Source of the DNA: Anaerosalibacter massiliensis
Lineage (GTDB): Bacteria > Bacillota > Clostridia > Tissierellales > Sporanaerobacteraceae
Direction of reading: 5' to 3'
NCBI GenBank assembly: GCA_000751555.1
Contig: CCEZ01000014.1
Span: 22,302 to 46,301 of the forward strand
Length of the DNA stretch: 24,000 bases
The position numbers and the translations under genes were made by a program. Positions 830 to 10,505 of the stretch are shown in pieces. The notes beneath the pieces were generated by a model, which saw nothing but the letters and a program-made list of their open reading frames with translations, ran no database searches and was not told where the DNA came from. Position 1 is the first letter of the stretch. Each line of letters opens with the position of its first letter.

Positions 830-1022
830 TATATGCTCGGCTCCTTTTTTAAATAATTAGCAATATGAGAATAAGAATAGAAAATTTTAAAATAGATGAT
901 TTTATCTAATATAGAGTTTTCAAAAGATTTAAAAAATATTATTTTTATTTTACATTAGGAAGATTATAAAATCAATATGTAATTTAACAAAATCTGATTT
1001 ATATATCATTTTACAAAAGCTA

Positions 1023-1049
1023 TAAACTTTTATTATTGGTTGACGATAT
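1023..1049 (+). promoter_or_regulatory. distal sigma-D/sigma-28-type promoter candidate for flagellin (TAAA-N15-GACGATAT)
   Basis: TAAA at 1023-1026, a 15-nt spacer, then GACGATAT at 1042-1049. Bacillus-type sigma-D consensus is TAAA-N15-GCCGATAT. This copy has a perfect -35 and one mismatch in the -10. Confidence 0.5.
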
Positions 1050-1092
1050 ATATAATGCATAGGAAATTTTAATTATAAAAACATAAAAACTA

Positions 1093-1119
1093 TTAACTTT
1101 TATTTATCTTTGCCGATAT
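1093..1119 (+). promoter_or_regulatory. proximal sigma-D/sigma-28-type promoter candidate for flagellin (TTAA-N15-GCCGATAT)
   Basis: Perfect GCCGATAT at 1112-1119 with TTAA at 1093-1096 (one mismatch to TAAA). It lies about 120 nt upstream of the flagellin ATG and sits in a roughly 70-nt unit that repeats the distal promoter unit. Confidence 0.6.
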
Positions 1120-1190
1120 GTATAGTATAGAAAAATTAAATATTATTTATCATGTTAATAAGCCATATAGGCTTGTTATATATAACTAAA

Positions 1191-1231
1191 TGCGAAAAAG
1201 GAGTTTCGCAAAATAAAAATTTCAAGGAGGA
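1191..1231 (+). promoter_or_regulatory. flagellin 5' leader with two GGA-motif sites (hairpin loop plus Shine-Dalgarno), CsrA-type translational control candidate
   Basis: Perfect 7-bp stem TGCGAAA (1191-1197) / TTTCGCA (1204-1210) presents the loop AAGGAG (1198-1203). A second AAGGAGG at 1224-1230 is the SD for the ATG at 1238. This is the same two-site layout known for CsrA repression of hag in Bacillus subtilis. Confidence 0.5.
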
Positions 1232-1237
1232 AGAAAA

Positions 1238-2407
1238 ATGAGAATTAATAACAACATGATGGCAATGAATGCCAACAGACAATTAGGTATCAACAATACA
1301 GGAACAGCTAAATCCTTAGAAAAATTATCATCAGGATTTAGAATCAACAGAGCAGGAGACGACGCAGCAGGACTAGCAATATCAGAAAAAATGAGAGGTC
1401 AAATCAGAGGATTAAACATGGCTTCCAAAAATGCTCAAGATGGTATTTCATTAATCCAAACTGCAGAAGGTGCATTAGATGAAACTCATGCAATCCTTCA
1501 AAGAATGAGAGAGTTAGCAGTTCAATCAGCTAATGATACAAATGTTGAAGTAGATAGAGGTGAAATTCAAAAGGAAATAGATCAATTATCAGCAGAACTT
1601 ACAAGAATAGCTGATACTACAGAATTCAATACTCAAAACTTATTAGGTGGAGATTTTAGTGGTAAGTTCCATGTTGGAGCTAATTCAGGACAAAACGTTG
1701 ATTTAGCTATTGGTAATATGAGTGCTGAAGCGTTAAATGTTCAAGGAGTAGTATATGATGCAACAGATGTTGAAGATGTTGAAGGTCTTCAAGTTAGAAG
1801 TAAAACTGGTGATGCCCTAGAAATTGAGTATAAAGCTCTAGGAGGAGATGCAGAAATAAAAGAAACAACAGCAGAGTTTGATGCTGAGAGTGGTAAGATA
1901 ACTATTACTCTTGCACAAGATGATGCTAATCAAGGTACTGCAACTCATGCTGATATAAAGGCTGCATTGGAATCTGTAGCTGAAAAAGCTGGAATATCAA
2001 TTTCCACAACAGATGATTTTGCAAAAGATACTGTAGCTACAGCAGCTCCAGCAGCAACAACAGTAAATGTAGCTGATGTAGACGAAGAAGCTAGTAAAAA
2101 AGTAGGAATTAACGTTTCTAGTCAAGAAGCGGCAGATGCAGCAATAACTACTATAAATAAAGCAGTTGAAACTGTTTCATCTGAAAGATCTAAACTTGGT
2201 GCTATGCAAAATAGATTAGAACATACTATCAAGAACTTAGACAATGCTTCTGAAAATCTACAAGCAGCAGAATCAAGAATTAGAGACGTAGACATGGCAA
2301 GAGAAATGATGGAATTTACAAAACAAAACATCTTACAACAAGCTTCAACAGCTATGTTGGCTCAAGCAAATAGCCTTCCTCAAGGAGTATTACAACTTTT
2401 AAGATAG
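1238..2407 (+). CDS. fliC: flagellin (FliC/Hag family), contiguous unspliced reading frame of 389 aa
   Basis: Conserved flagellin N-terminus (MRINNNMMAMNANRQLGINN...LSSGFRINRAGDDAAGLAISEKMRGQIRGL) and C-terminus (SKLGAMQNRLEHTIKNLDNASENLQAAESRIRDVDMAREMMEFTKQNILQQASTAMLAQAN...LLR). Strong SD. The last 15 codons (2363-2407) lie inside the predicted intron. Confidence 0.95.
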   Translation: MRINNNMMAMNANRQLGINNTGTAKSLEKLSSGFRINRAGDDAAGLAISEKMRGQIRGLNMASKNAQDGISLIQTAEGALDETHAILQRMRELAVQSANDTNVEVDRGEIQKEIDQLSAELTRIADTTEFNTQNLLGGDFSGKFHVGANSGQNVDLAIGNMSAEALNVQGVVYDATDVEDVEGLQVRSKTGDALEIEYKALGGDAEIKETTAEFDAESGKITITLAQDDANQGTATHADIKAALESVAEKAGISISTTDDFAKDTVATAAPAATTVNVADVDEEASKKVGINVSSQEAADAAITTINKAVETVSSERSKLGAMQNRLEHTIKNLDNASENLQAAESRIRDVDMAREMMEFTKQNILQQASTAMLAQANSLPQGVLQLLR

Positions 2408-2772
2408 TGTGACATTAGAACGTTTTATTTGCCACATAAAGATGAGGAAACTATTTACGGGTCCCTCAAAGAGTAATTTTTGAGAGAAAATTGGGTGAAT
2501 TGCTGGAACTTCCTAAAGCTCTACTTCCTACAACGTAGTTGGAAACAGCAAACGTGAAAGGTTTAGAATAGTAGAGATGAAACAATGGATAATCAGCAGC
2601 CAAGCTCCTGTACTGAAAAGTTGGAGAAGGTTCAACGACTAGGATATACCACCTAAGGTTTTGCTATGGTGATGAAGTCTATAGGAGAAGAGGTCCTCCA
2701 AAGTGCCCAACAGCCACAATATTATGGTTGAAGATATAGTCTGGCATATATTGAAAGATATGTGATGGTCCG
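2363..2772 (+). ncRNA. ORF-less group I intron interrupting the flagellin C-terminal codons
   Basis: Core elements read by eye: P-like AATTGCTGGAA 2498-2508; Q-like AATCAGCAGCC 2591-2601; R-like GTTCAACGACTAG 2630-2642; S-like AAGATATAGTCT 2731-2742. Pairings: P3 TTGGGTG 2491-2497 / CACCTAA 2650-2656; P4 TGCTG 2501-2505 / CAGCA 2594-2598; P6 CTCC 2605-2608 / GGAG 2623-2626; P7 GACTA 2637-2641 / TAGTC 2737-2741; P2 CTCAAA 2465-2470 / TTTGAG 2479-2484; P5-type CTCTACT 2519-2525 / AGTAGAG 2570-2576; P9 2744-2749 / 2758-2763. P1 pairs exon GGCT (2359-2362) plus C2363 with GGGTC (2459-2463), placing U2362 opposite G2460. The last intron base is G2772. Confidence 0.8.
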
Positions 2773-2817
2773 CAAGCAAACCAAGCACCTCAAACAGTAC
2801 TACAATTATTAAGATAA
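2773..2817 (+). CDS. fliC: flagellin 3' exon (14 codons plus TAA) joined to 1238-2362 after intron excision
   Basis: CAAGCAAACCAAGCACCTCAAACAGTACTACAATTATTAAGATAA translates to QANQAPQTVLQLLR*. It is in frame with codon 375 (GCT, 2360-2362), matches the canonical flagellin terminus, and is followed directly by the only strong terminator. Confidence 0.75.
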   Translation, partial: QANQAPQTVLQLLR

Positions 2818-2826
2818 TTAGGAAAC

Positions 2827-2861
2827 AAAATTTAAGCCGAGAATTTCTCGGCTTAAATTTT
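2827..2861. terminator. bidirectional rho-independent terminator
   Basis: Perfect 15-bp stem AAAATTTAAGCCGAG (2827-2841) / CTCGGCTTAAATTTT (2847-2861) with loop AATTT. The A-run and T-run flanks would let it serve flagellin (+) and the convergent ORF 2853-3098 (-). Confidence 0.85.
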
Positions 2862-3098
2862 ACCTTCTTTTTGCTTATCTTTTTTCCCTGTTTGCATTTT
2901 TTTATATATTTTATTCATATATTCTTCACTTTTTTTAAGCCCAAGTTTTGAAGCCTTAGTTCTCAGAGTTGATTCTGTATATCCTAATTTTTTAGCTAAT
3001 TTATTATTATCAGAATTAGGATATTCATTTTTCATGATTTGTTTTTTTTCATTTAAATTATATTTTGAGATGTTACCACCTTCCATATATACAAACAT
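2853..3098 (-). CDS. small hypothetical protein with an HTH-like segment
   Basis: 81-aa ORF containing NKLAKKLGYTESTLRTKASKLGLKK (helix-turn-helix-like) and a lysine-rich tail. No convincing SD at any of the three candidate ATGs. A TATAAT on the reverse strand lies just upstream of the first ATG, so the mRNA could be leaderless. The stop codon sits inside the terminator stem. Confidence 0.4.
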   Translation of the reverse strand: MFVYMEGGNISKYNLNEKKQIMKNEYPNSDNNKLAKKLGYTESTLRTKASKLGLKKSEEYMNKIYKKMQTGKKDKQKEGKI

Positions 3099-3223
3099 AT
3101 GTTTTGCATATTATATCATATTGTATTATATATATCTAGCGTGCTTATATATTTTCATGTAACTTTTAAAATTAGATATTTGATTATTACAAAAATTTAA
3201 GCACAAATTTATGCAAAATTTTG

Positions 3224-3243
3224 ATACTTTCTTAAGAAAGTAT
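3224..3243. repeat. perfect 20-bp palindrome ATACTTTCTTAAGAAAGTAT
   Basis: Read directly. It lies in the divergent intergenic region between ORF 2853-3098 (-) and ORF 3462-4622 (+). No T-run follows, so an operator is more likely than a terminator. Confidence 0.4.
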
Positions 3244-3461
3244 GTTATTGTATATATGATTTCAAATACTTTCATATTAAAATTAATGTAGATATTATCT
3301 TTATATTAATTACTATTTAAACTTAATAAGTCAAAATTTTATTAAAAGGAGTGATTAAATTTATTAAGTTTTAACTGTACATAATAAGGAAGTTTAGCAA
3401 TTATATAGATTGTAAATTTAAAATAGGCTTAATACATTTTAATGTAGGAGGGGGAAAATAG

Positions 3462-5411: not shown

Positions 5412-7232
5412 ATGAATAAAAGACAATGTGATTTATTAAAAAAGTTAATAACTCAGAAGAAATATATGCCTATGAAGTATTTTTCTGACATATTAAACAT
5501 ATCAAGGAAAACGGTATCAAATGATATTGATGAAATTGAAAAAATTATTAATCCTATTGGTGCTAAGATAGATAGGAAACAAGGAATAGGCATAAGGATA
5601 TACTATACTCCGTCTCAATTAGATGAATTGAATAATATACTAAACAATATTAAAGTTTCTAACAAAGACAATGATTTAGAATATAGAAGAATACAGATTT
5701 TATTGAACTTACTTATCCCTACTAGTGAATATACTACAATTCAAAAACTTTCAGACGAACATATGGTGAGTAGAACCTCTATTAATAATGACTTAGATGA
5801 AATCCAAAAGATATTAGATATATACAATTTAAGTCTATCAAAAACATTAAAGGGAACAAGAATAGTTGGTAGTGAAATAAATATTAGAAAAGCTTTGGTT
5901 TCTATAGTTCAAGAATATGGAAAGACTAATCCTGATTATATTGTTGAGTATCAGAACATTCGCCATAAAGAACTTAATATTGATGAAATCAATACTATAC
6001 TAAACAAGGAATCTGTTTTCTTTTTTGAAGAATTATTGAATGAATTAGAAAATAAATTGAAACTGGTAATATATGAACCTTATTATACAAATCTGCTAAC
6101 CCATTTAGTAATTATGACAAATAGGATTATTAATGGGAATTATATTGATGATATTTTAGATTTAAATGAATCTGTATTGGTATTGGATGAAGAATTGTAT
6201 AGTAGTGCTATTTATCTAATAAGGGAAATAGAAAAGAAATTTAATATTGAGATTGACAAGCAGGAAATAGTATACATATATAAACACTTAATATCAATAG
6301 GGCTAAGCCATGACAATAAGGATGATAATAATGAAAAGAATATTAAGGAATTTGATTTGCCACCAGCTCATTTTACAGAATATTTAATAGATATTGTATC
6401 ACAAATGTCAAATACTAACTATAGATTAAGGCCTAATTTATACGATAGATTGTTGCTACACATTAAGCCTATGCTAAATAGAATAAAATATAATATTCAG
6501 ATTAAGAACCCTTTGTTAAATGATTTTTTGAGAGAATTTGAAGAAGAGTTTTTTATAATGAAGATTGCTTGCTTTTTAGCTTGCAATAAATTTGGAATAA
6601 ATAAGATAAATGACCATGAGGTATCCTATATTCTTTCTTATTTTATATCTGAAAACGAAAAAATTGTAGAGGCAATGAAAATAAAAATATTGGTTATTTG
6701 TCATAGTGGATATGGTACTAGCCAGTTATTAGCAGCTAGGTTGGAAAAGGCTTTTAATAATATTGAGGTAGTTAATATTGTTGCATCTAAATCAGTAGAT
6801 AGTATTGATTTAGATAAAATAGATTTAATAGTTTCTACTGTAAATTTAGATATAGAACAACCGTATTTAATAGTATCTGCATTTTTAAATGAAATTGACA
6901 AGGAAAATATAAGAAATTATATAGAAATGATACTAGAGAACAAAAGAAAACTTTCCTCAAATAATCCTGTAAAAACAATCTCATTAGAAACTATTAATAG
7001 CTGCAAAGATATGGAAGAATTTAAGAAGTATTTTATTGAAGATAACTTAATCCATATAAAAAATAATACCTATGTATACCTTGTATATAGTGGACAAGAT
7101 TCAGTTAAAAAATATGTATATGAACAGGATAATTCATGGAAGCATATATTTGCTATAAGGTATTCTAACTATGTATATTTATCAGAGGTATTAAGGCAGA
7201 TTGCGGGGGGATGTTTAAATGAGGAAAGATAA
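5412..7232 (+). CDS. PRD-domain transcriptional regulator of the MtlR/LicR/ManR type (two N-terminal HTH domains, two PRDs, an EIIB-like domain)
   Basis: N-terminal winged-HTH segments (ISRKTVSNDIDEIEKI; VSRTSINNDLDEIQKI). PRD-like histidine helices (LLTHLVIMTNRI; LLLHIKPMLNRI). EIIB(Gat)-like KILVICHSGYGTSQLLAARLEKAF with the phosphorylatable Cys. Confidence 0.8.
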   Translation: MNKRQCDLLKKLITQKKYMPMKYFSDILNISRKTVSNDIDEIEKIINPIGAKIDRKQGIGIRIYYTPSQLDELNNILNNIKVSNKDNDLEYRRIQILLNLLIPTSEYTTIQKLSDEHMVSRTSINNDLDEIQKILDIYNLSLSKTLKGTRIVGSEINIRKALVSIVQEYGKTNPDYIVEYQNIRHKELNIDEINTILNKESVFFFEELLNELENKLKLVIYEPYYTNLLTHLVIMTNRIINGNYIDDILDLNESVLVLDEELYSSAIYLIREIEKKFNIEIDKQEIVYIYKHLISIGLSHDNKDDNNEKNIKEFDLPPAHFTEYLIDIVSQMSNTNYRLRPNLYDRLLLHIKPMLNRIKYNIQIKNPLLNDFLREFEEEFFIMKIACFLACNKFGINKINDHEVSYILSYFISENEKIVEAMKIKILVICHSGYGTSQLLAARLEKAFNNIEVVNIVASKSVDSIDLDKIDLIVSTVNLDIEQPYLIVSAFLNEIDKENIRNYIEMILENKRKLSSNNPVKTISLETINSCKDMEEFKKYFIEDNLIHIKNNTYVYLVYSGQDSVKKYVYEQDNSWKHIFAIRYSNYVYLSEVLRQIAGGCLNEER

Positions 7233-7695
7233 TATGGAAGACAAAAATATACTTAGTCTAGATAATATTATTTTAAATAGTAAACTACATTGTAAAGAAG
7301 AAGTTATTGATAAATTATTTGATATTCTAGTAGATTCAGGGGCTGTTTTAGATAAAAAAACGTTTATAGAGGACATATATGAAAGAGAAAGTAGAGGGTT
7401 TACTTTTGCTGGAGATTATTTAGCTATTCCCCATAGCTTTTCTAATTGTGTAGCTTGGCCTCAAATAGCTATTATTAGGACAAATAATGCTTTTGTATGG
7501 GATGAAAATGAAAATTTAGTAAAATTGGTTATTATGCTTGCTATTCCTGAAAGTACTGAGAGGGAAAAAGAATTAGAGATACTAAAAAATATTGTTTATT
7601 CATTAGGAGATGTGAATTTAGTTAAAGATTTATTGGAGGTCAATACAAAGGAAGAATTAATTAAACTTATTTATAGTTATGCTGATAATCAATAG
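7219..7695 (+). CDS. PTS EIIA, type 2 (fructose/mannitol/Ntr family)
   Basis: GDYLAIPHSF active-site His context and typical EIIA-2 length. Overlaps the regulator stop by 14 nt. An alternative start is ATG 7234, behind GAGGAAAG. Confidence 0.75.
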   Translation: MRKDNMEDKNILSLDNIILNSKLHCKEEVIDKLFDILVDSGAVLDKKTFIEDIYERESRGFTFAGDYLAIPHSFSNCVAWPQIAIIRTNNAFVWDENENLVKLVIMLAIPESTEREKELEILKNIVYSLGDVNLVKDLLEVNTKEELIKLIYSYADNQ

Positions 7696-7704
7696 GAGGT
7701 TATT

Positions 7705-8244
7705 ATGAGAGTAAGTATATTTAAAAGAGGAATAGCTACAATACTTGATATTTATATATCATCAGTTTTGGCTCATATACCTATTTTATTAATTTATAGT
7801 ATAGAAACTGGTGAAGTACAGATGACTAAGGAATTATCAGCTTTATCTACATTAAATGGAGTATTAGCTTGCATATTAGGAATTTTAATAGCCTTATTTT
7901 ATTATGTAATATTACCTGTGTATAAATTTGATGGACAAACTTTAATGAAAAAAACATTAGGCTTTAAAGTAGTAAAGATGGATGGCAATAATGTAGATTT
8001 AAATACAATGTTTAAAAGAGAATTATTAGGTTCTATGATTTTAGAAGGCGGATTCGTAATTGGTGGAAGTTATTTAAGGCAATTAATATTAATAATTATT
8101 GGCTCAAAATCATTATATAAGGGACTTTTATATGTTTCTTTTGTAACTACGATTTTATCTATAATAATTATGATTTTTTCAAAGTCAAATAGGGCTATCC
8201 ACGATTATATTGCAGGTACTAAAGTTTTAAATTTAAAAGATTAG
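7705..8244 (+). CDS. RDD-family-like integral membrane protein
   Basis: AGGAGG SD. N-terminal FKRGIATILDIYISS and C-terminal NRAIHDYIAGTKVL match the Arg...Asp...Asp pattern of RDD proteins. Three or four hydrophobic helices. Confidence 0.55.
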   Translation: MRVSIFKRGIATILDIYISSVLAHIPILLIYSIETGEVQMTKELSALSTLNGVLACILGILIALFYYVILPVYKFDGQTLMKKTLGFKVVKMDGNNVDLNTMFKRELLGSMILEGGFVIGGSYLRQLILIIIGSKSLYKGLLYVSFVTTILSIIIMIFSKSNRAIHDYIAGTKVLNLKD

Positions 8245-8289
8245 TATATTAATTTTTTTATATATAAAACCATAATAATGGAGGTGGAA

Positions 8290-8616
8290 ATGATGAAAAA
8301 GATATATTTGTTTTGTGATAATGGAATGAGTACAAGCATGATTGCTAAAAAGATGCAAGATGTTGGTGATAAGCACAAATTATCCATAGAAGTAAAGGCT
8401 TTTCCAATTAGAAATTTGGAGAAGATATTGGATGAGAAGAATCCTGACTGTGTATTATTAGGGCCACAAGTTAGACATTTATTTGAGGATACTAAAAACA
8501 GAGTGAAAGATTATAATGTTCCAGTTGGAGTTATTGATTCCGTTGATTATGGAATGATGGATGGAGAAAAAGTGTTAAAAAAATCAATAGTATTGATGAA
8601 AAAATATAAAGGTTAG
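8290..8616 (+). CDS. PTS EIIB, lactose/cellobiose family
   Basis: MMKKIYLFCDNGMSTSMIAKKMQ carries the conserved phospho-Cys in a CxxGMSTS context. The ORF-track start 8278 contains the SD GGAGGTGG itself, so ATG 8290 or 8293 is the likelier start. Confidence 0.85.
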   Translation: MMKKIYLFCDNGMSTSMIAKKMQDVGDKHKLSIEVKAFPIRNLEKILDEKNPDCVLLGPQVRHLFEDTKNRVKDYNVPVGVIDSVDYGMMDGEKVLKKSIVLMKKYKG

Positions 8617-8627
8617 GGGAGGTTAAA

Positions 8628-9974
8628 ATGTTTGAAAAACTAGAGAAGGTCTTAATGCCTGTAGCAGATAGGTTAGGCAAGAATAAAGTTTTAGTTGCTA
8701 TACGTGATGGTTTTTTGGTATCAACTCCATTGATAATTGTAGGGTCTCTATTTATTTTAATAGCAAATTTCCCAATACCAGGATGGTCTGAGTTTTGGGC
8801 AAAAATATTTGGAGAAGGATGGGAATCCTATTTATCTAATGTAGCAAGAGCAACTTTTGATATTATATCGTTATTAGCAGTTATTGGTATAGGATATTCT
8901 TATTCTAGACAAATAGGAGCAGATAGAATACAAGGAGCAATTGTTTCTCTTGTGTCTTTTGTAATTTTAATGCCTACAACAATTGTATATGAAGGTGCAA
9001 AAGGGACTGAAACATTGAATGCTATAAGCTTTTCTTTTACAGGAACAAGTGGAATATTTTTATCAATGATTGTTTCAATTTTATCTGTTCGAATATTTAA
9101 CTGGGCTTATAAAAAAGGCTGGACAATAAAGCTGCCAGAAGGAGTGCCACCAGCTGTTTTTAATTCTTTTGCAGCTTTGATTCCAAGTGCTATAGTAATG
9201 TTTATATTTTTCCTAGTAAGAATTTTATTTGAGCTTACACCATATGAATCTGCACACAATTTTATATATACTGTATTGCAAGCTCCTTTAATGGGAGTAG
9301 GAAATAGTTTAGGTGCACAAATTATTTATGTTGTATCTTGTTCTGTTTTCTGGTTCTTTGGAATAAATGGTCCTGCAGTTGCAAACTCAGTTTTCTCGCC
9401 AATATTTAGAACTTTGTCAATAGAAAATTTAAAGGCTTTCCAAGCGGGACTAGCATTGCCACATATATATACAGGACAGTTTGTAGACTTATTCCAAACA
9501 TTTGGTGGAGGAGGAAGTACTCTCTCCCTAGTTATACTTATGGTGACAGTTTGCAAATCTGAAAGAATTAAACAATTAGGTAAATTGTCCATTGTACCTG
9601 GTGTATTTGGTATTAATGAACCTATTATATTTGGTTTGCCAATTGTACTAAATCCTGTGATGATTATACCTTTTATAGGGGTTCCATTAATAAATACTAT
9701 TTTGTCAGCTATAGCTTTTGAAAGTGGGTTCTTGCCTTATACAAATGGAGTTGAAATACCGTGGACAACACCTTTAGGATTTTCAGGATACTTATCAACA
9801 GGTAGTTTAAAGGCAGCATTATTTCAAGTTATATTAGTAGTATTAGGCTGTGTAGTCTACTATCCATTTATAAAGATACTAGATAAGAATTACCTAAAAG
9901 ATGAGCAATCTCAAACAGAAGAAGATGAATTGGAAGATATTTCATTTGATGATATATCTTTAGATGATATTTAG
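8628..9974 (+). CDS. PTS EIIC, lactose/cellobiose (chitobiose) family permease
   Basis: 448-aa polytopic protein whose N-terminus LMPVADRLGKNKVLVAIRDGF is typical of CelB/ChbC-type EIIC. GGGGAGG SD. Acidic C-terminal tail. Confidence 0.85.
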   Translation: MFEKLEKVLMPVADRLGKNKVLVAIRDGFLVSTPLIIVGSLFILIANFPIPGWSEFWAKIFGEGWESYLSNVARATFDIISLLAVIGIGYSYSRQIGADRIQGAIVSLVSFVILMPTTIVYEGAKGTETLNAISFSFTGTSGIFLSMIVSILSVRIFNWAYKKGWTIKLPEGVPPAVFNSFAALIPSAIVMFIFFLVRILFELTPYESAHNFIYTVLQAPLMGVGNSLGAQIIYVVSCSVFWFFGINGPAVANSVFSPIFRTLSIENLKAFQAGLALPHIYTGQFVDLFQTFGGGGSTLSLVILMVTVCKSERIKQLGKLSIVPGVFGINEPIIFGLPIVLNPVMIIPFIGVPLINTILSAIAFESGFLPYTNGVEIPWTTPLGFSGYLSTGSLKAALFQVILVVLGCVVYYPFIKILDKNYLKDEQSQTEEDELEDISFDDISLDDI

Positions 9975-9983
9975 GAGGTAAAT

Positions 9984-10505
9984 ATGAAAGTTTTAATGAT
10001 ATTTGACCAAATACAAGCTGGGATGGGAGGAAAGGAAAGAGCTAATCTTCCATTAGGTGGTAAAAAAGGAGAGATAGGTTCAGTTCCTATGATTGATCCT
10101 CATCTTAAAAAAGTAGAAGGTAAGGTCATTGCTTGCTTGTATTGTGGTGACAGTTATTTTAAAGAAAATGAAGAGGAAGTAGTTAAAAAGATGACTGTAA
10201 TGGTGAAAAAATTAGATCCAGATGTAGTTATCTGTGGACCAGCATATAATTATAATGGCTATGCTTATATGTGTGCTGCTATTTCAAAAGAGATAAGTGA
10301 AAAGGCAAATATACCAGTAGTTGCTGCTATGTCTCAAGAAAATGAAGAAACCATTTTAAAATATAAGGAAATAGTGAATATTGTAAAGATGCCTAAAAAA
10401 GGTGGTACTGGGTTAAATGAATCATTAAATAATATTTGTATACTAGCAAGAAAACTATTTGATAAAGAGGACATTAGTAAATTGAAAGAAAAGATATGCT
10501 ATTAA
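9984..10505 (+). CDS. stand-alone homologue of the N-terminal region of GrdB/PrdB-type reductase selenoprotein B; function unknown
   Basis: MIFDQIQAGMGGKERANLP...CGDSYFKENEEEV...DPDVVICGPAYNYNGYAYMCAAISKEI...IPVVAAM parallels the GrdB N-terminus as I remember it (YINQFFAGIGGEEKAD...CGDSYFAEN...PDLFIAGPAFNAGRYG). The ORF ends at TAA after 173 aa, with no in-frame TGA. Confidence 0.55.
   Translation: MKVLMIFDQIQAGMGGKERANLPLGGKKGEIGSVPMIDPHLKKVEGKVIACLYCGDSYFKENEEEVVKKMTVMVKKLDPDVVICGPAYNYNGYAYMCAAISKEISEKANIPVVAAMSQENEETILKYKEIVNIVKMPKKGGTGLNESLNNICILARKLFDKEDISKLKEKICY

Follow-up and report, generated by a model that had tools for sequence, protein, structure and literature searches.

A predicted subgroup IA intron within the flagellin gene of Anaerosalibacter massiliensis carries an in-frame copy of the exon that it displaces

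Introduction

Self-splicing group I introns, reported as IA2, are known from flagellin genes in Geobacillus stearothermophilus and other thermophilic Bacillus species (Hayakawa and Ishizuka 2009, 2012, cited by PMC3984707 and PMC4853749), and in thermophilic Bacillus their splicing is reported to be temperature-dependent (Hayakawa and Ishizuka, as cited in PMC4853749). PMC3984707 treats group I introns in bacterial chromosomal protein-coding genes as rarities. It also describes phage and bacterial group I introns, such as that of T4 td, with an early in-frame stop that is thought to keep ribosomes off the ribozyme core. Here we describe a predicted group I intron in a flagellin gene of Anaerosalibacter massiliensis, found in a stretch of 24,000 nucleotides (nt) of contig CCEZ01000014.1 (GenBank assembly GCA_000751555.1, positions 22,302 to 46,301), which we call the window; all positions below are those of the window unless a locus is named. 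Group I ribozymes of another clostridium, Clostridioides difficile, include IStrons, which have an IS200/605-type transposase module, and an allosteric ribozyme dependent on cyclic di-GMP (c-di-GMP) through an adjacent aptamer.

A first-pass annotation, made from the letters of the window, had proposed the intron. Our analysis supports that proposal and changes how the gene around it is read. The best explanation overall, to which we give a probability of about 0.82, is an IA-type intron, very probably self-splicing and without an endonuclease gene, that begins with a copy of the last 14 codons of the flagellin; we read this copy, with less confidence, chiefly as a fail-safe.

Results

The intron and the flagellin gene

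The flagellin open reading frame (ORF) as called runs from 1238 to 2407 on the + strand and encodes 389 amino acids (aa) ending in AMLAQANSLPQGVLQLLR before the stop. It matches Pfam Flagellin_N and Flagellin_C and has homologs in the thousands, the closest named one being the flagellin of Anaerosalibacter bizertensis (74% identical). A second reading of the final 14 codons, here tail2, starts 365 nt beyond the stop of the first, tail1. We assign 2363-2772 with high confidence to a group I intron bounded at 2362/2363 and 2772/2773, which would place the insertion between codon 375 (Ala, GCU) and codon 376 (Gln), in the conserved C-terminal helix region. The parts of the gene are then as follows.

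1238..2362 (+): flagellin exon 1, codons 1-375 of the ORF, ending AMLA, last base U2362
2363..2772 (+): predicted group I intron, 410 nt, subgroup IA-like, no endonuclease ORF; RF00028 match
2363..2407 (+): tail1, intron-borne in-frame copy of exon 2, QANSLPQGVLQLLR, stop 2405-2407; in frame with exon 1
2772 (+): terminal G of the intron (omega-G), with the 3' splice site at 2772/2773; from the sequence, the junction matching an intron-less allele (L243)
2773..2817 (+): exon 2 (tail2), QANQAPQTVLQLLR, stop 2815-2817; native-type terminus

Rfam RF00028 (Intron_gpI), the search that the first-pass annotation had suggested, matches 2434-2763 over the full model (1-253) with 95.4 bits (E 9.5e-24; gathering score 50). 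This is the sole Rfam match in the 24 kb window. The P, Q, R and S elements that the first-pass annotation had named each occur once and in that order (P AATTGCTGGAA at 2498, Q AATCAGCAGCC at 2591, R GTTCAACGACTAG at 2630, S AAGATATAGTCT at 2731). The bases at 2362 and 2772 are T and G. Tail1, with its 14 codons, is the only + strand ORF sequence inside the intron, and the - strand of 2408-2772 holds only mechanical ORFs of 35-49 aa; the intron thus encodes no homing endonuclease.

The count of 23 G+C in the 60 nt of 2461-2520, given in the first-pass annotation, was exact. Its statement that the intron is richer in G+C than its flanks holds in full for the downstream side, where the contrast is large (39.0% in the intron and 40.8% in its core vs 21.1% in the downstream spacer and 28.8% in the whole window), and much less for the upstream side, where the difference from the coding sequence of exon 1 (35.9%) is small.

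An intron-less allele and the native exon

Once 2363-2772 is taken out, the window is 98.3% identical to a contig of a different sample (L243), on which the gene ends AMLA-QANQAPQTVLQLLR before the stop. L243 looks like a genomic intron-less allele of another strain, because the contig reaches 428 nt upstream of the start codon and because 41 nt downstream of the gene replace about 330 nt of the window. The most direct support for the predicted exon junction comes from this allele. It has the exact in-frame terminus that the first-pass annotation had expected on excision, fits the intron end that it had placed at G2772, and supplies the comparison with intron-less alleles that it had recommended. 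The window segment absent from L243, about 2821-3151, contains ORF 2853-3098; 41 other bases stand in its place. The sites at which the window and L243 differ are scattered over the gene, none of them in 2264-2362, and give no sign of a donor-derived co-conversion tract.

The two tails resemble one another, with 32 of 45 nt identical, as they would if 2408-2817 were the decayed remnant of a tandem second flagellin gene of which the last 14 codons survived. We give this virtually no chance. It is refuted by the full-length covariance-model match and the covarying helices described below, by the precise junction of the intron-less allele, and by 2408-2772 itself, where there is no flagellin-like frame or coding homology; the remnant was one of the outcomes that the first-pass annotation had named as fatal to its proposal.

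Intron-less genes carry the tail2 type (L243, L245). Nine of 16 intron-less paralogues end in QANQQPQGVLQLLR, which is also the modal tail2 of intron-bearing loci (64/104) and is rare among their tail1s (3/104). For this reason we take tail2 to be the native exon and tail1 to belong to the intron. The converse arrangement, a resident tail1 with a mobile unit of ribozyme and tail2, was rejected on the same grounds.

A large family in Bacilli and Clostridia

We scanned one representative genome per species for relatives, using a pattern of the S element, a gap of 15-45 nt, G and the codons for QANQ; the pattern fixes these three features, and members with other tail2 starts lie outside it. The intron was found in at least 120 species of Bacilli and Clostridia, at the same codon in all the matches listed. 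Nearly all of the matches listed have the window's spacing of 54 nt, and nearly all run on as a flagellin terminus with a stop. Hosts among the matches listed include Bacillaceae, Planococcaceae and Exiguobacterium, the Bacilli being represented by Priestia megaterium, Peribacillus, Neobacillus, Metabacillus, Oceanobacillus, Sporosarcina, Planococcus, Exiguobacterium, Brevibacillus and Anoxybacillus. The first-pass annotation placed the reported flagellin introns in thermophilic Bacillaceae only and not in clostridia; we found at least 16 clostridial lineages. They include Clostridium tyrobutyricum, C. acetireducens, C. gallinarum, C. aromativorans, Tissierella praeacuta, Clostridium sp. Cult2, Fusibacter and Caloranaerobacter, metagenome-assembled genomes (MAGs) of Peptostreptococcaceae, Acetivibrionales and Syntrophomonadaceae, and Anaerosalibacter.

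Within the Tissierellia-like group we saw no signal of recent horizontal spread: the divergence of the intron cores (83-88% identical) roughly keeps step with that of the neighbouring 150 nt of exon (85-95%). In a joint search of 18 loci, RF00028 was not listed at the gathering threshold for L196 and L220, whose cores are 85-86% identical to that of the window; this is probably an effect of the speed filter at the larger search size. A scan of viral contigs for the R and S pattern listed generic phage introns and was uninformative.

Secondary structure and subgroup

We aligned 98 homologous introns with MAFFT, counted canonical pairs at window coordinates and obtained a consensus fold with RNAalifold. 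MAFFT did not keep the clades in register at P2, P8, P9 and the P1 extension, and these helices were taken from folds and duplex tests. The helices downstream of P1 are:

2465..2485 (+): P2 hairpin; consensus fold and single-sequence fold
2491-2496 / 2705-2710 (+): P3, 5' and 3' strands; 97-98/98 canonical, CG/UA exchanges at 2491/2710 and 2492/2709
2498..2601 (+): P4 (2501-2506 / 2593-2598) with the P and Q elements, around P5 and its extension; P4 98/98 canonical, Rfam alignment, consensus fold
2605-2608 / 2623-2626 (+): P6; 98/98 canonical, five pair types at 2606/2625
2612-2614 / 2619-2621 (+): P6a with a GAAA loop (P6 and P6a together 2605..2626); 97-98/98 canonical, four to five pair types per position
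2630..2642 (+): R element with the P7 5' strand (P7 2637-2641 / 2737-2741); P7 98/98 canonical
2642..2699 (+): P7.1, P7.1a and P7.2, between P7 and the P3 3' strand; pair counts, P7.2 from the consensus fold only
2642-2645 / 2677-2680 (+): P7.1; 97-98/98 canonical, many compensatory types
2650-2653 / 2668-2671 (+): P7.1a; 94-98/98 canonical, many compensatory types
2712..2729 (+): P8 hairpin; Rfam alignment and consensus fold
2731..2742 (+): S element with the P7 3' strand (2737-2741); Rfam alignment, pair counts
2745..2764 (+): P9 hairpin; Rfam alignment and consensus fold

P3, P4, P6 and P7 are thus 97-100% canonical over the 98 relatives, with compensatory changes in P3 and P6. The complementarity proposed for these four helices in the first-pass annotation is borne out; of its 7-bp P3, six pairs are confirmed and the seventh, G2497-U2704, was left uncounted. 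Extra P7.1 and P7.2 helices between P7 and the P3 3' strand are the hallmark of subgroup IA, and it is to this subgroup, with IA1, IA2 and IA3 not told apart, that the predicted fold assigns the window intron.

P1 and the 5' splice site

The 5' splice site lies within P1, whose parts in the window are:

2359..2363 (+): P1 core, 5' strand, spanning the splice site 2362/2363; pairs with 2459-2463 (U2362.G2460)
2368..2373 (+): P1 extension, 5' strand AAAUAG (tail1 codons 2-4); pairs with CUAUUU at 2451-2456
2374..2450 (+): L1 loop, holding the remainder of tail1, its stop and a window-specific insertion of ~32 nt (compared with L244, L196 and L156)
2451..2463 (+): P1 extension 3' strand (2451-2456) and internal guide sequence GGGUC (2459-2463); covariation, fold

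In the core, the pairs of G2360, C2361, U2362 and C2363 with 2459-2462 are canonical in 98/98 introns and the U.G pair is invariant; the window has a fifth pair, G2359-C2463. The guide motif just upstream of P2 is conserved, as GGGCG in bacilli and GGGUC in clostridia. An unconstrained fold of 2350-2490 returned the same P1 core, extension and P2, with an unremarkable z-score of -1.3. The pair U2362.G2460, in a P1 immediately upstream of P2, is therefore where it had first been placed.

Past an internal loop, tail1 codons 2-4 pair with a segment downstream of the tail1 stop. This extension takes at least 12 different helix sequences in the family (for example CAAAUCA/UGAUUUG, ACAACA/UGUUGU, UUUCCA/UGGAAA and GAAUACA/UGUAUUC), and the first codons of tail1 co-vary with the strand just upstream of the guide sequence. 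Matched P1 strands gave a mean duplex energy of -10.2 kcal/mol vs -7.9 kcal/mol for strands exchanged between species, and the extension alone -5.65 vs -3.18 kcal/mol; in each case 0 of 2000 permutations, which ignore kinship, reached the observed mean. Another extension is possible in the window, GCAAAU at 2366-2371 with AUUUGC at 2427-2432. It was set aside for 2368-2373/2451-2456, the family-consistent and minimum-energy pairing.

The window intron owes its 410 nt to the ~32 extra nt in L1, the modal length being 369-375 nt. From the tail1 stop to the guide sequence there are 51 nt in the window vs 17-23 nt in L244, L196 and L156. The flanks of the insertion, which lies within 2408-2450, are TGTGA and TGAGGAA and resemble one another. 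The excess may be a local duplication or insertion.

Tail1, a conserved copy of exon 2

Tail1 occupies the P1 loop and the distal P1 stem, and its first 8 nt, CAAGCAAA, are the same as those of tail2. As it is in frame and ends in a stop, the unspliced message encodes a full-length flagellin. Spliced and unspliced products of the window gene have 389 aa each and differ at three residues (tail positions 4, 5 and 8); the predicted C-terminal tryptic peptides are QNILQQASTAMLAQANSLPQGVLQLLR for the unspliced and QNILQQASTAMLAQANQAPQTVLQLLR for the spliced form. The first-pass annotation had taken the first tail as incidental. Instead it is a conserved, intron-borne copy of exon 2, and the gene is complete without splicing.

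An intact tail1, 14 in-frame codons and a stop, is present in about 100 of the 108 loci with enough upstream sequence. The window's type, QANSLPQGVLQLLR, recurs in the intron-bearing loci L244, L196 and L156. Third codon positions vary while the amino acids are conserved: over codons 5-14 the mean entropy at codon positions 1/2/3 is 0.66/0.33/1.27 bits in tail1 and 0.53/0.22/1.09 bits in tail2. The near-invariant QANQ of tail2 was not used as evidence, being imposed by the search pattern. Both tails share lineage-specific residues at positions 8 and 14. Arginine codons differ, AGA/AGG being preferred in tail1 and CGU in tail2, from which we conclude that the tails are not being homogenised. 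From the pattern of substitutions, both tails appear to be under protein-level constraint.

The exceptions include Oceanobacillus arenosus (L142), in which TAA replaces the first codon, CAA, and still pairs with the guide G, and a Cerasibacillus MAG (L180), which has a shortened QFEQVA before the stop and an intron of 338 nt. In Bacillaceae bacterium C204 (L159) an insertion of ~325 nt, which holds a ribosome-binding site of its own and a ~90-aa ORF, lies between the tail1 stop and P3. This insertion replaces the guide-sequence region of the tail intron, and the GGGCG/GGGUC motif was not found there.

A predicted splicing pathway

In standard group I chemistry, the 5' exon end GGCU would pair with the guide GGGUC, with U2362 opposite G2460, and free guanosine bound at P7 would attack after U2362. 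G2772 would then occupy the guanosine site and the exons would be joined, completing two transesterifications. The product would be an mRNA for a 389-aa flagellin ending QANQAPQTVLQLLR. A ribosome on unspliced RNA would make a 389-aa flagellin ending QANSLPQGVLQLLR, and its release at the tail1 stop would keep ribosomes off the ribozyme core. As unspliced RNA also gives a full-length flagellin, failure to splice would not be lethal to the gene. Tail1 would then be mainly a fail-safe, allowing the intron to persist in a gene that is among the most heavily translated of the cell. We think it probable that the window intron is active in vivo; on the fail-safe role of tail1 we are less confident.

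The two tails could also be the two outputs of an adaptive gene, with splicing as a switch, set by temperature or translation rate, between isoforms differing at tail residues 4, 5 and 8. A ribosome terminating at the tail1 stop would, in typical members, cover the P1 3' strand and guide sequence, which lie a few nt away, so that translated messages would stay unspliced, while translationally repressed messages, for example those bound by CsrA, could fold and splice. The apparent constraint on both tails speaks for such a gene. So does their divergence, for the tails are identical in none of 104 loci and differ mainly at positions 2-5. Temperature-dependent splicing has been reported for the Bacillus introns (cited in PMC4853749), and in Anaerosalibacter the flagellin gene that bears the intron has fliW and csrA just upstream (L244). 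Against this, no functional difference between the tails is known, and their non-identity is also expected both from the pairing constraints on tail1 and because identical direct repeats would recombine and delete the intron. In the window, moreover, 44 nt separate the stop from the P1 3' strand, which would weaken occlusion by the ribosome. The proposal depends on inference throughout, and we think it unlikely.

Does the intron still splice?

A ribozyme that had lost its activity would leave a gene that effectively ends at 2407, with 2408-2817 an undecayed 3' untranslated relic. Three features of the window that count against our reading would suit such a relic: the intron differs from otherwise invariant bases at 2566 and 2700, its L1 is enlarged by ~32 nt, and P10 is weak. 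For P10, between the start of tail2 and the guide region, matched strands gave -2.14 vs -2.00 kcal/mol for mismatched ones, a mean reached by 104 of 2000 permutations, and the candidates in the window are C2773-G2459 and AAA/UUU only. P10 thus has no support, the pairing being no better than chance; it is dispensable in many group I introns. The relic would also be in keeping with an ORF that is complete without splicing and with a close strain that lacks the intron and has a gene without apparent defect.

Other points weaken the case for an active intron without favouring a relic in particular. The S element, terminal G and QANQ of the relatives are not independent observations, as the search pattern imposed them. 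The P1 permutation tests take no account of sequence relatedness. The wobble T of the last exon 1 alanine codon is present in 105/105 intron-bearing genes, and we dropped this invariant U as splice-site evidence because GCT also stands in 15/16 intron-less paralogues. The codon-periodic variation of tail2 could in part be diversity older than the insertion of the intron, not later selection.

Three results make an inactive relic unlikely nonetheless. The window agrees at 142 of the 144 intron columns that are at least 95% conserved among 97 relatives, and its score of ~95 bits is one of the highest that we measured for members of the family. The intact tail2 has 96-98% identity to that of relatives whose intron cores are 83-88% and next 100 nt 42-52% identical. 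The same intact architecture is found in more than 100 species, which is hard to square with general inactivity.

Some relatives, moreover, appear to need splicing. With TAA as the first tail1 codon in Oceanobacillus arenosus and a truncated tail1 in Cerasibacillus, only spliced RNA could give the full-length protein. The same would hold for flagellin genes with a second, upstream intron, as read-through into that intron yields only YALAA and a stop. The self-splicing reported for the flagellin introns of thermophilic Bacillus likewise points to a use of splicing.

Genes with two introns

The upstream intron, also of group I (Rfam 52-92 bits), lies ~75 nt upstream of the tail intron in five Bacillaceae loci (coordinates of each locus); it is absent from the window.

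L176 4586-4936 (-): upstream intron, Priestia megaterium
L126 6233-6582 (+): upstream intron, Paranoxybacillus
L178 1732-2087 (+): upstream intron, Anoxybacillus
L147 4931-5244 (-): upstream intron, Neobacillus niacini
L159 911-1274 (-): upstream intron, Bacillaceae isolate

It follows AESRIRDVD, and read-through gives only YALAA or YALAV before a stop, with no copy of the exon, in the three loci translated (L176, L126 and L178). A protein of Xylanivirga thermophila (P0032) ends RIRDVDYAEAA; proteins of this type look like the same upstream-intron truncation in clostridia. Aptamers of the c-di-GMP-I riboswitch (69-83 bits) occur within a few kb of intron-bearing flagellin genes of three Bacilli, at L176 6974-7059, L183 2608-2704 and L229 7385-7480.

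Flanking signals and neighbouring genes

Two signals of the flagellin transcript were read from the sequence around the gene.

1093..1119 (+): probable sigma-D (sigma-28) type flagellin promoter; TTAA, 15 nt, GCCGATAT
2827..2861 (+): intrinsic terminator of the flagellin transcript; 16-bp stem, facing the convergent ORF 2853-3098

The promoter is probable by comparison with the sigma-D consensus TAAA-N15-GCCGATAT. The terminator is the sole + strand terminator-like site within 900-3400 and stands downstream of tail2, in agreement with the first-pass annotation. In the 5' leader (1191-1235) a hairpin, GCGAAAAAGGAGUUUCGC at 1191-1210, exposes a GGA, and a further GGA lies within the Shine-Dalgarno sequence AAGGAGGA. 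The Bacillus subtilis hag leader has two CsrA sites, and the two-GGA layout of the window resembles it. In the Anaerosalibacter locus L244, fliW and csrA are directly upstream of the flagellin gene.

ORF 2853-3098 (- strand, 81 aa) is convergent with the flagellin gene and faces its terminator. In L156, L220, L182 and L135 it has homologs with 31-55% identity, at a distance of 1-2.6 kb downstream of the flagellin genes with the intron. Pfam gave no match for it, and PHROG only weak ones, to a D5-like regulator (E 0.002) and an HNH endonuclease family (E 0.004); we did not use it as a homing endonuclease candidate on these grounds. Farther downstream (5412-9974 and 9984-10505) the genes are unrelated to motility and include a PRD/Mga-type regulator with phosphotransferase system EIIA, EIIB and EIIC. 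The match of a downstream ORF of 173 aa to glycine/sarcosine/betaine reductase protein B is confined to the N-terminal half (profile positions 3-167 of 347), which could reflect a selenocysteine UGA read as a stop.

Discussion

The intron family is large. It occupies one of the most expressed and translated genes in at least 120 species of Bacilli and Clostridia, and nearly all of its members carry a substitute for the exon that they displace. This offers an answer to how a slow-folding ribozyme survives under tight coupling of transcription and translation: failure to splice would be harmless. There is also a practical consequence. Gene callers let such flagellins end with the tail that the intron carries or, in genes with two introns, with a truncation, so database proteins are not identical to what the spliced message encodes.

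How broad the family is, that it extends to clostridia, that it conserves a copy of the exon and that some genes have two introns may all be unreported; we found no mention of them in a search outside which the primary papers of Hayakawa and Ishizuka lay. If the exon copy is indeed undescribed, the family would be a widespread instance of bacterial self-splicing introns encoding a stand-in for the exon that they displace. Going further, the copy within P1 might be an evolved device that makes the intron phenotypically silent with or without splicing, and it may couple the choice of C-terminus to ribosome traffic, temperature or the control of flagellin translation by CsrA/FliW. This is a tentative idea, with the odds against it. 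If it were true, such genes would be a natural case of alternative protein isoforms made by a ribozyme in bacteria.

Among clostridia, the ribozymes of C. difficile are likewise group I ribozymes in a chromosome, with alternative RNA products possible. They use alternative splice sites, whereas the outputs of the window gene would be spliced and unspliced message. The ORF listing shows no IS200/605 transposase module of the IStron kind in the 410-nt intron, and Rfam at the gathering threshold gave no riboswitch match in the window of the kind that the c-di-GMP allosteric ribozyme would have.

With introns of the T4 td type, as described in PMC3984707, the window intron shares an early in-frame stop. 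It differs in that the 14 codons before this stop copy the whole exon, so that the unspliced product is full-length and not truncated. The ordinary short form is seen in the upstream intron of the twin-intron Bacillus flagellin genes, with YALAA before the stop.

The closest described systems are the introns of thermophilic Bacillus, which are like the window intron in host gene, in chromosomal protein-coding context and in an IA-type fold with P7.1 and P7.2. The window intron, without an endonuclease gene, has homologs in the thermophilic Bacillaceae Anoxybacillus (L178) and Paranoxybacillus (L126), whose flagellin genes carry two introns each. A difference lies in the host, which is here a low-G+C anaerobe of the Clostridia, Tissierellia-like. 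Flagellin group I introns are already known, and the intron of Anaerosalibacter massiliensis is a new member in a new host group.

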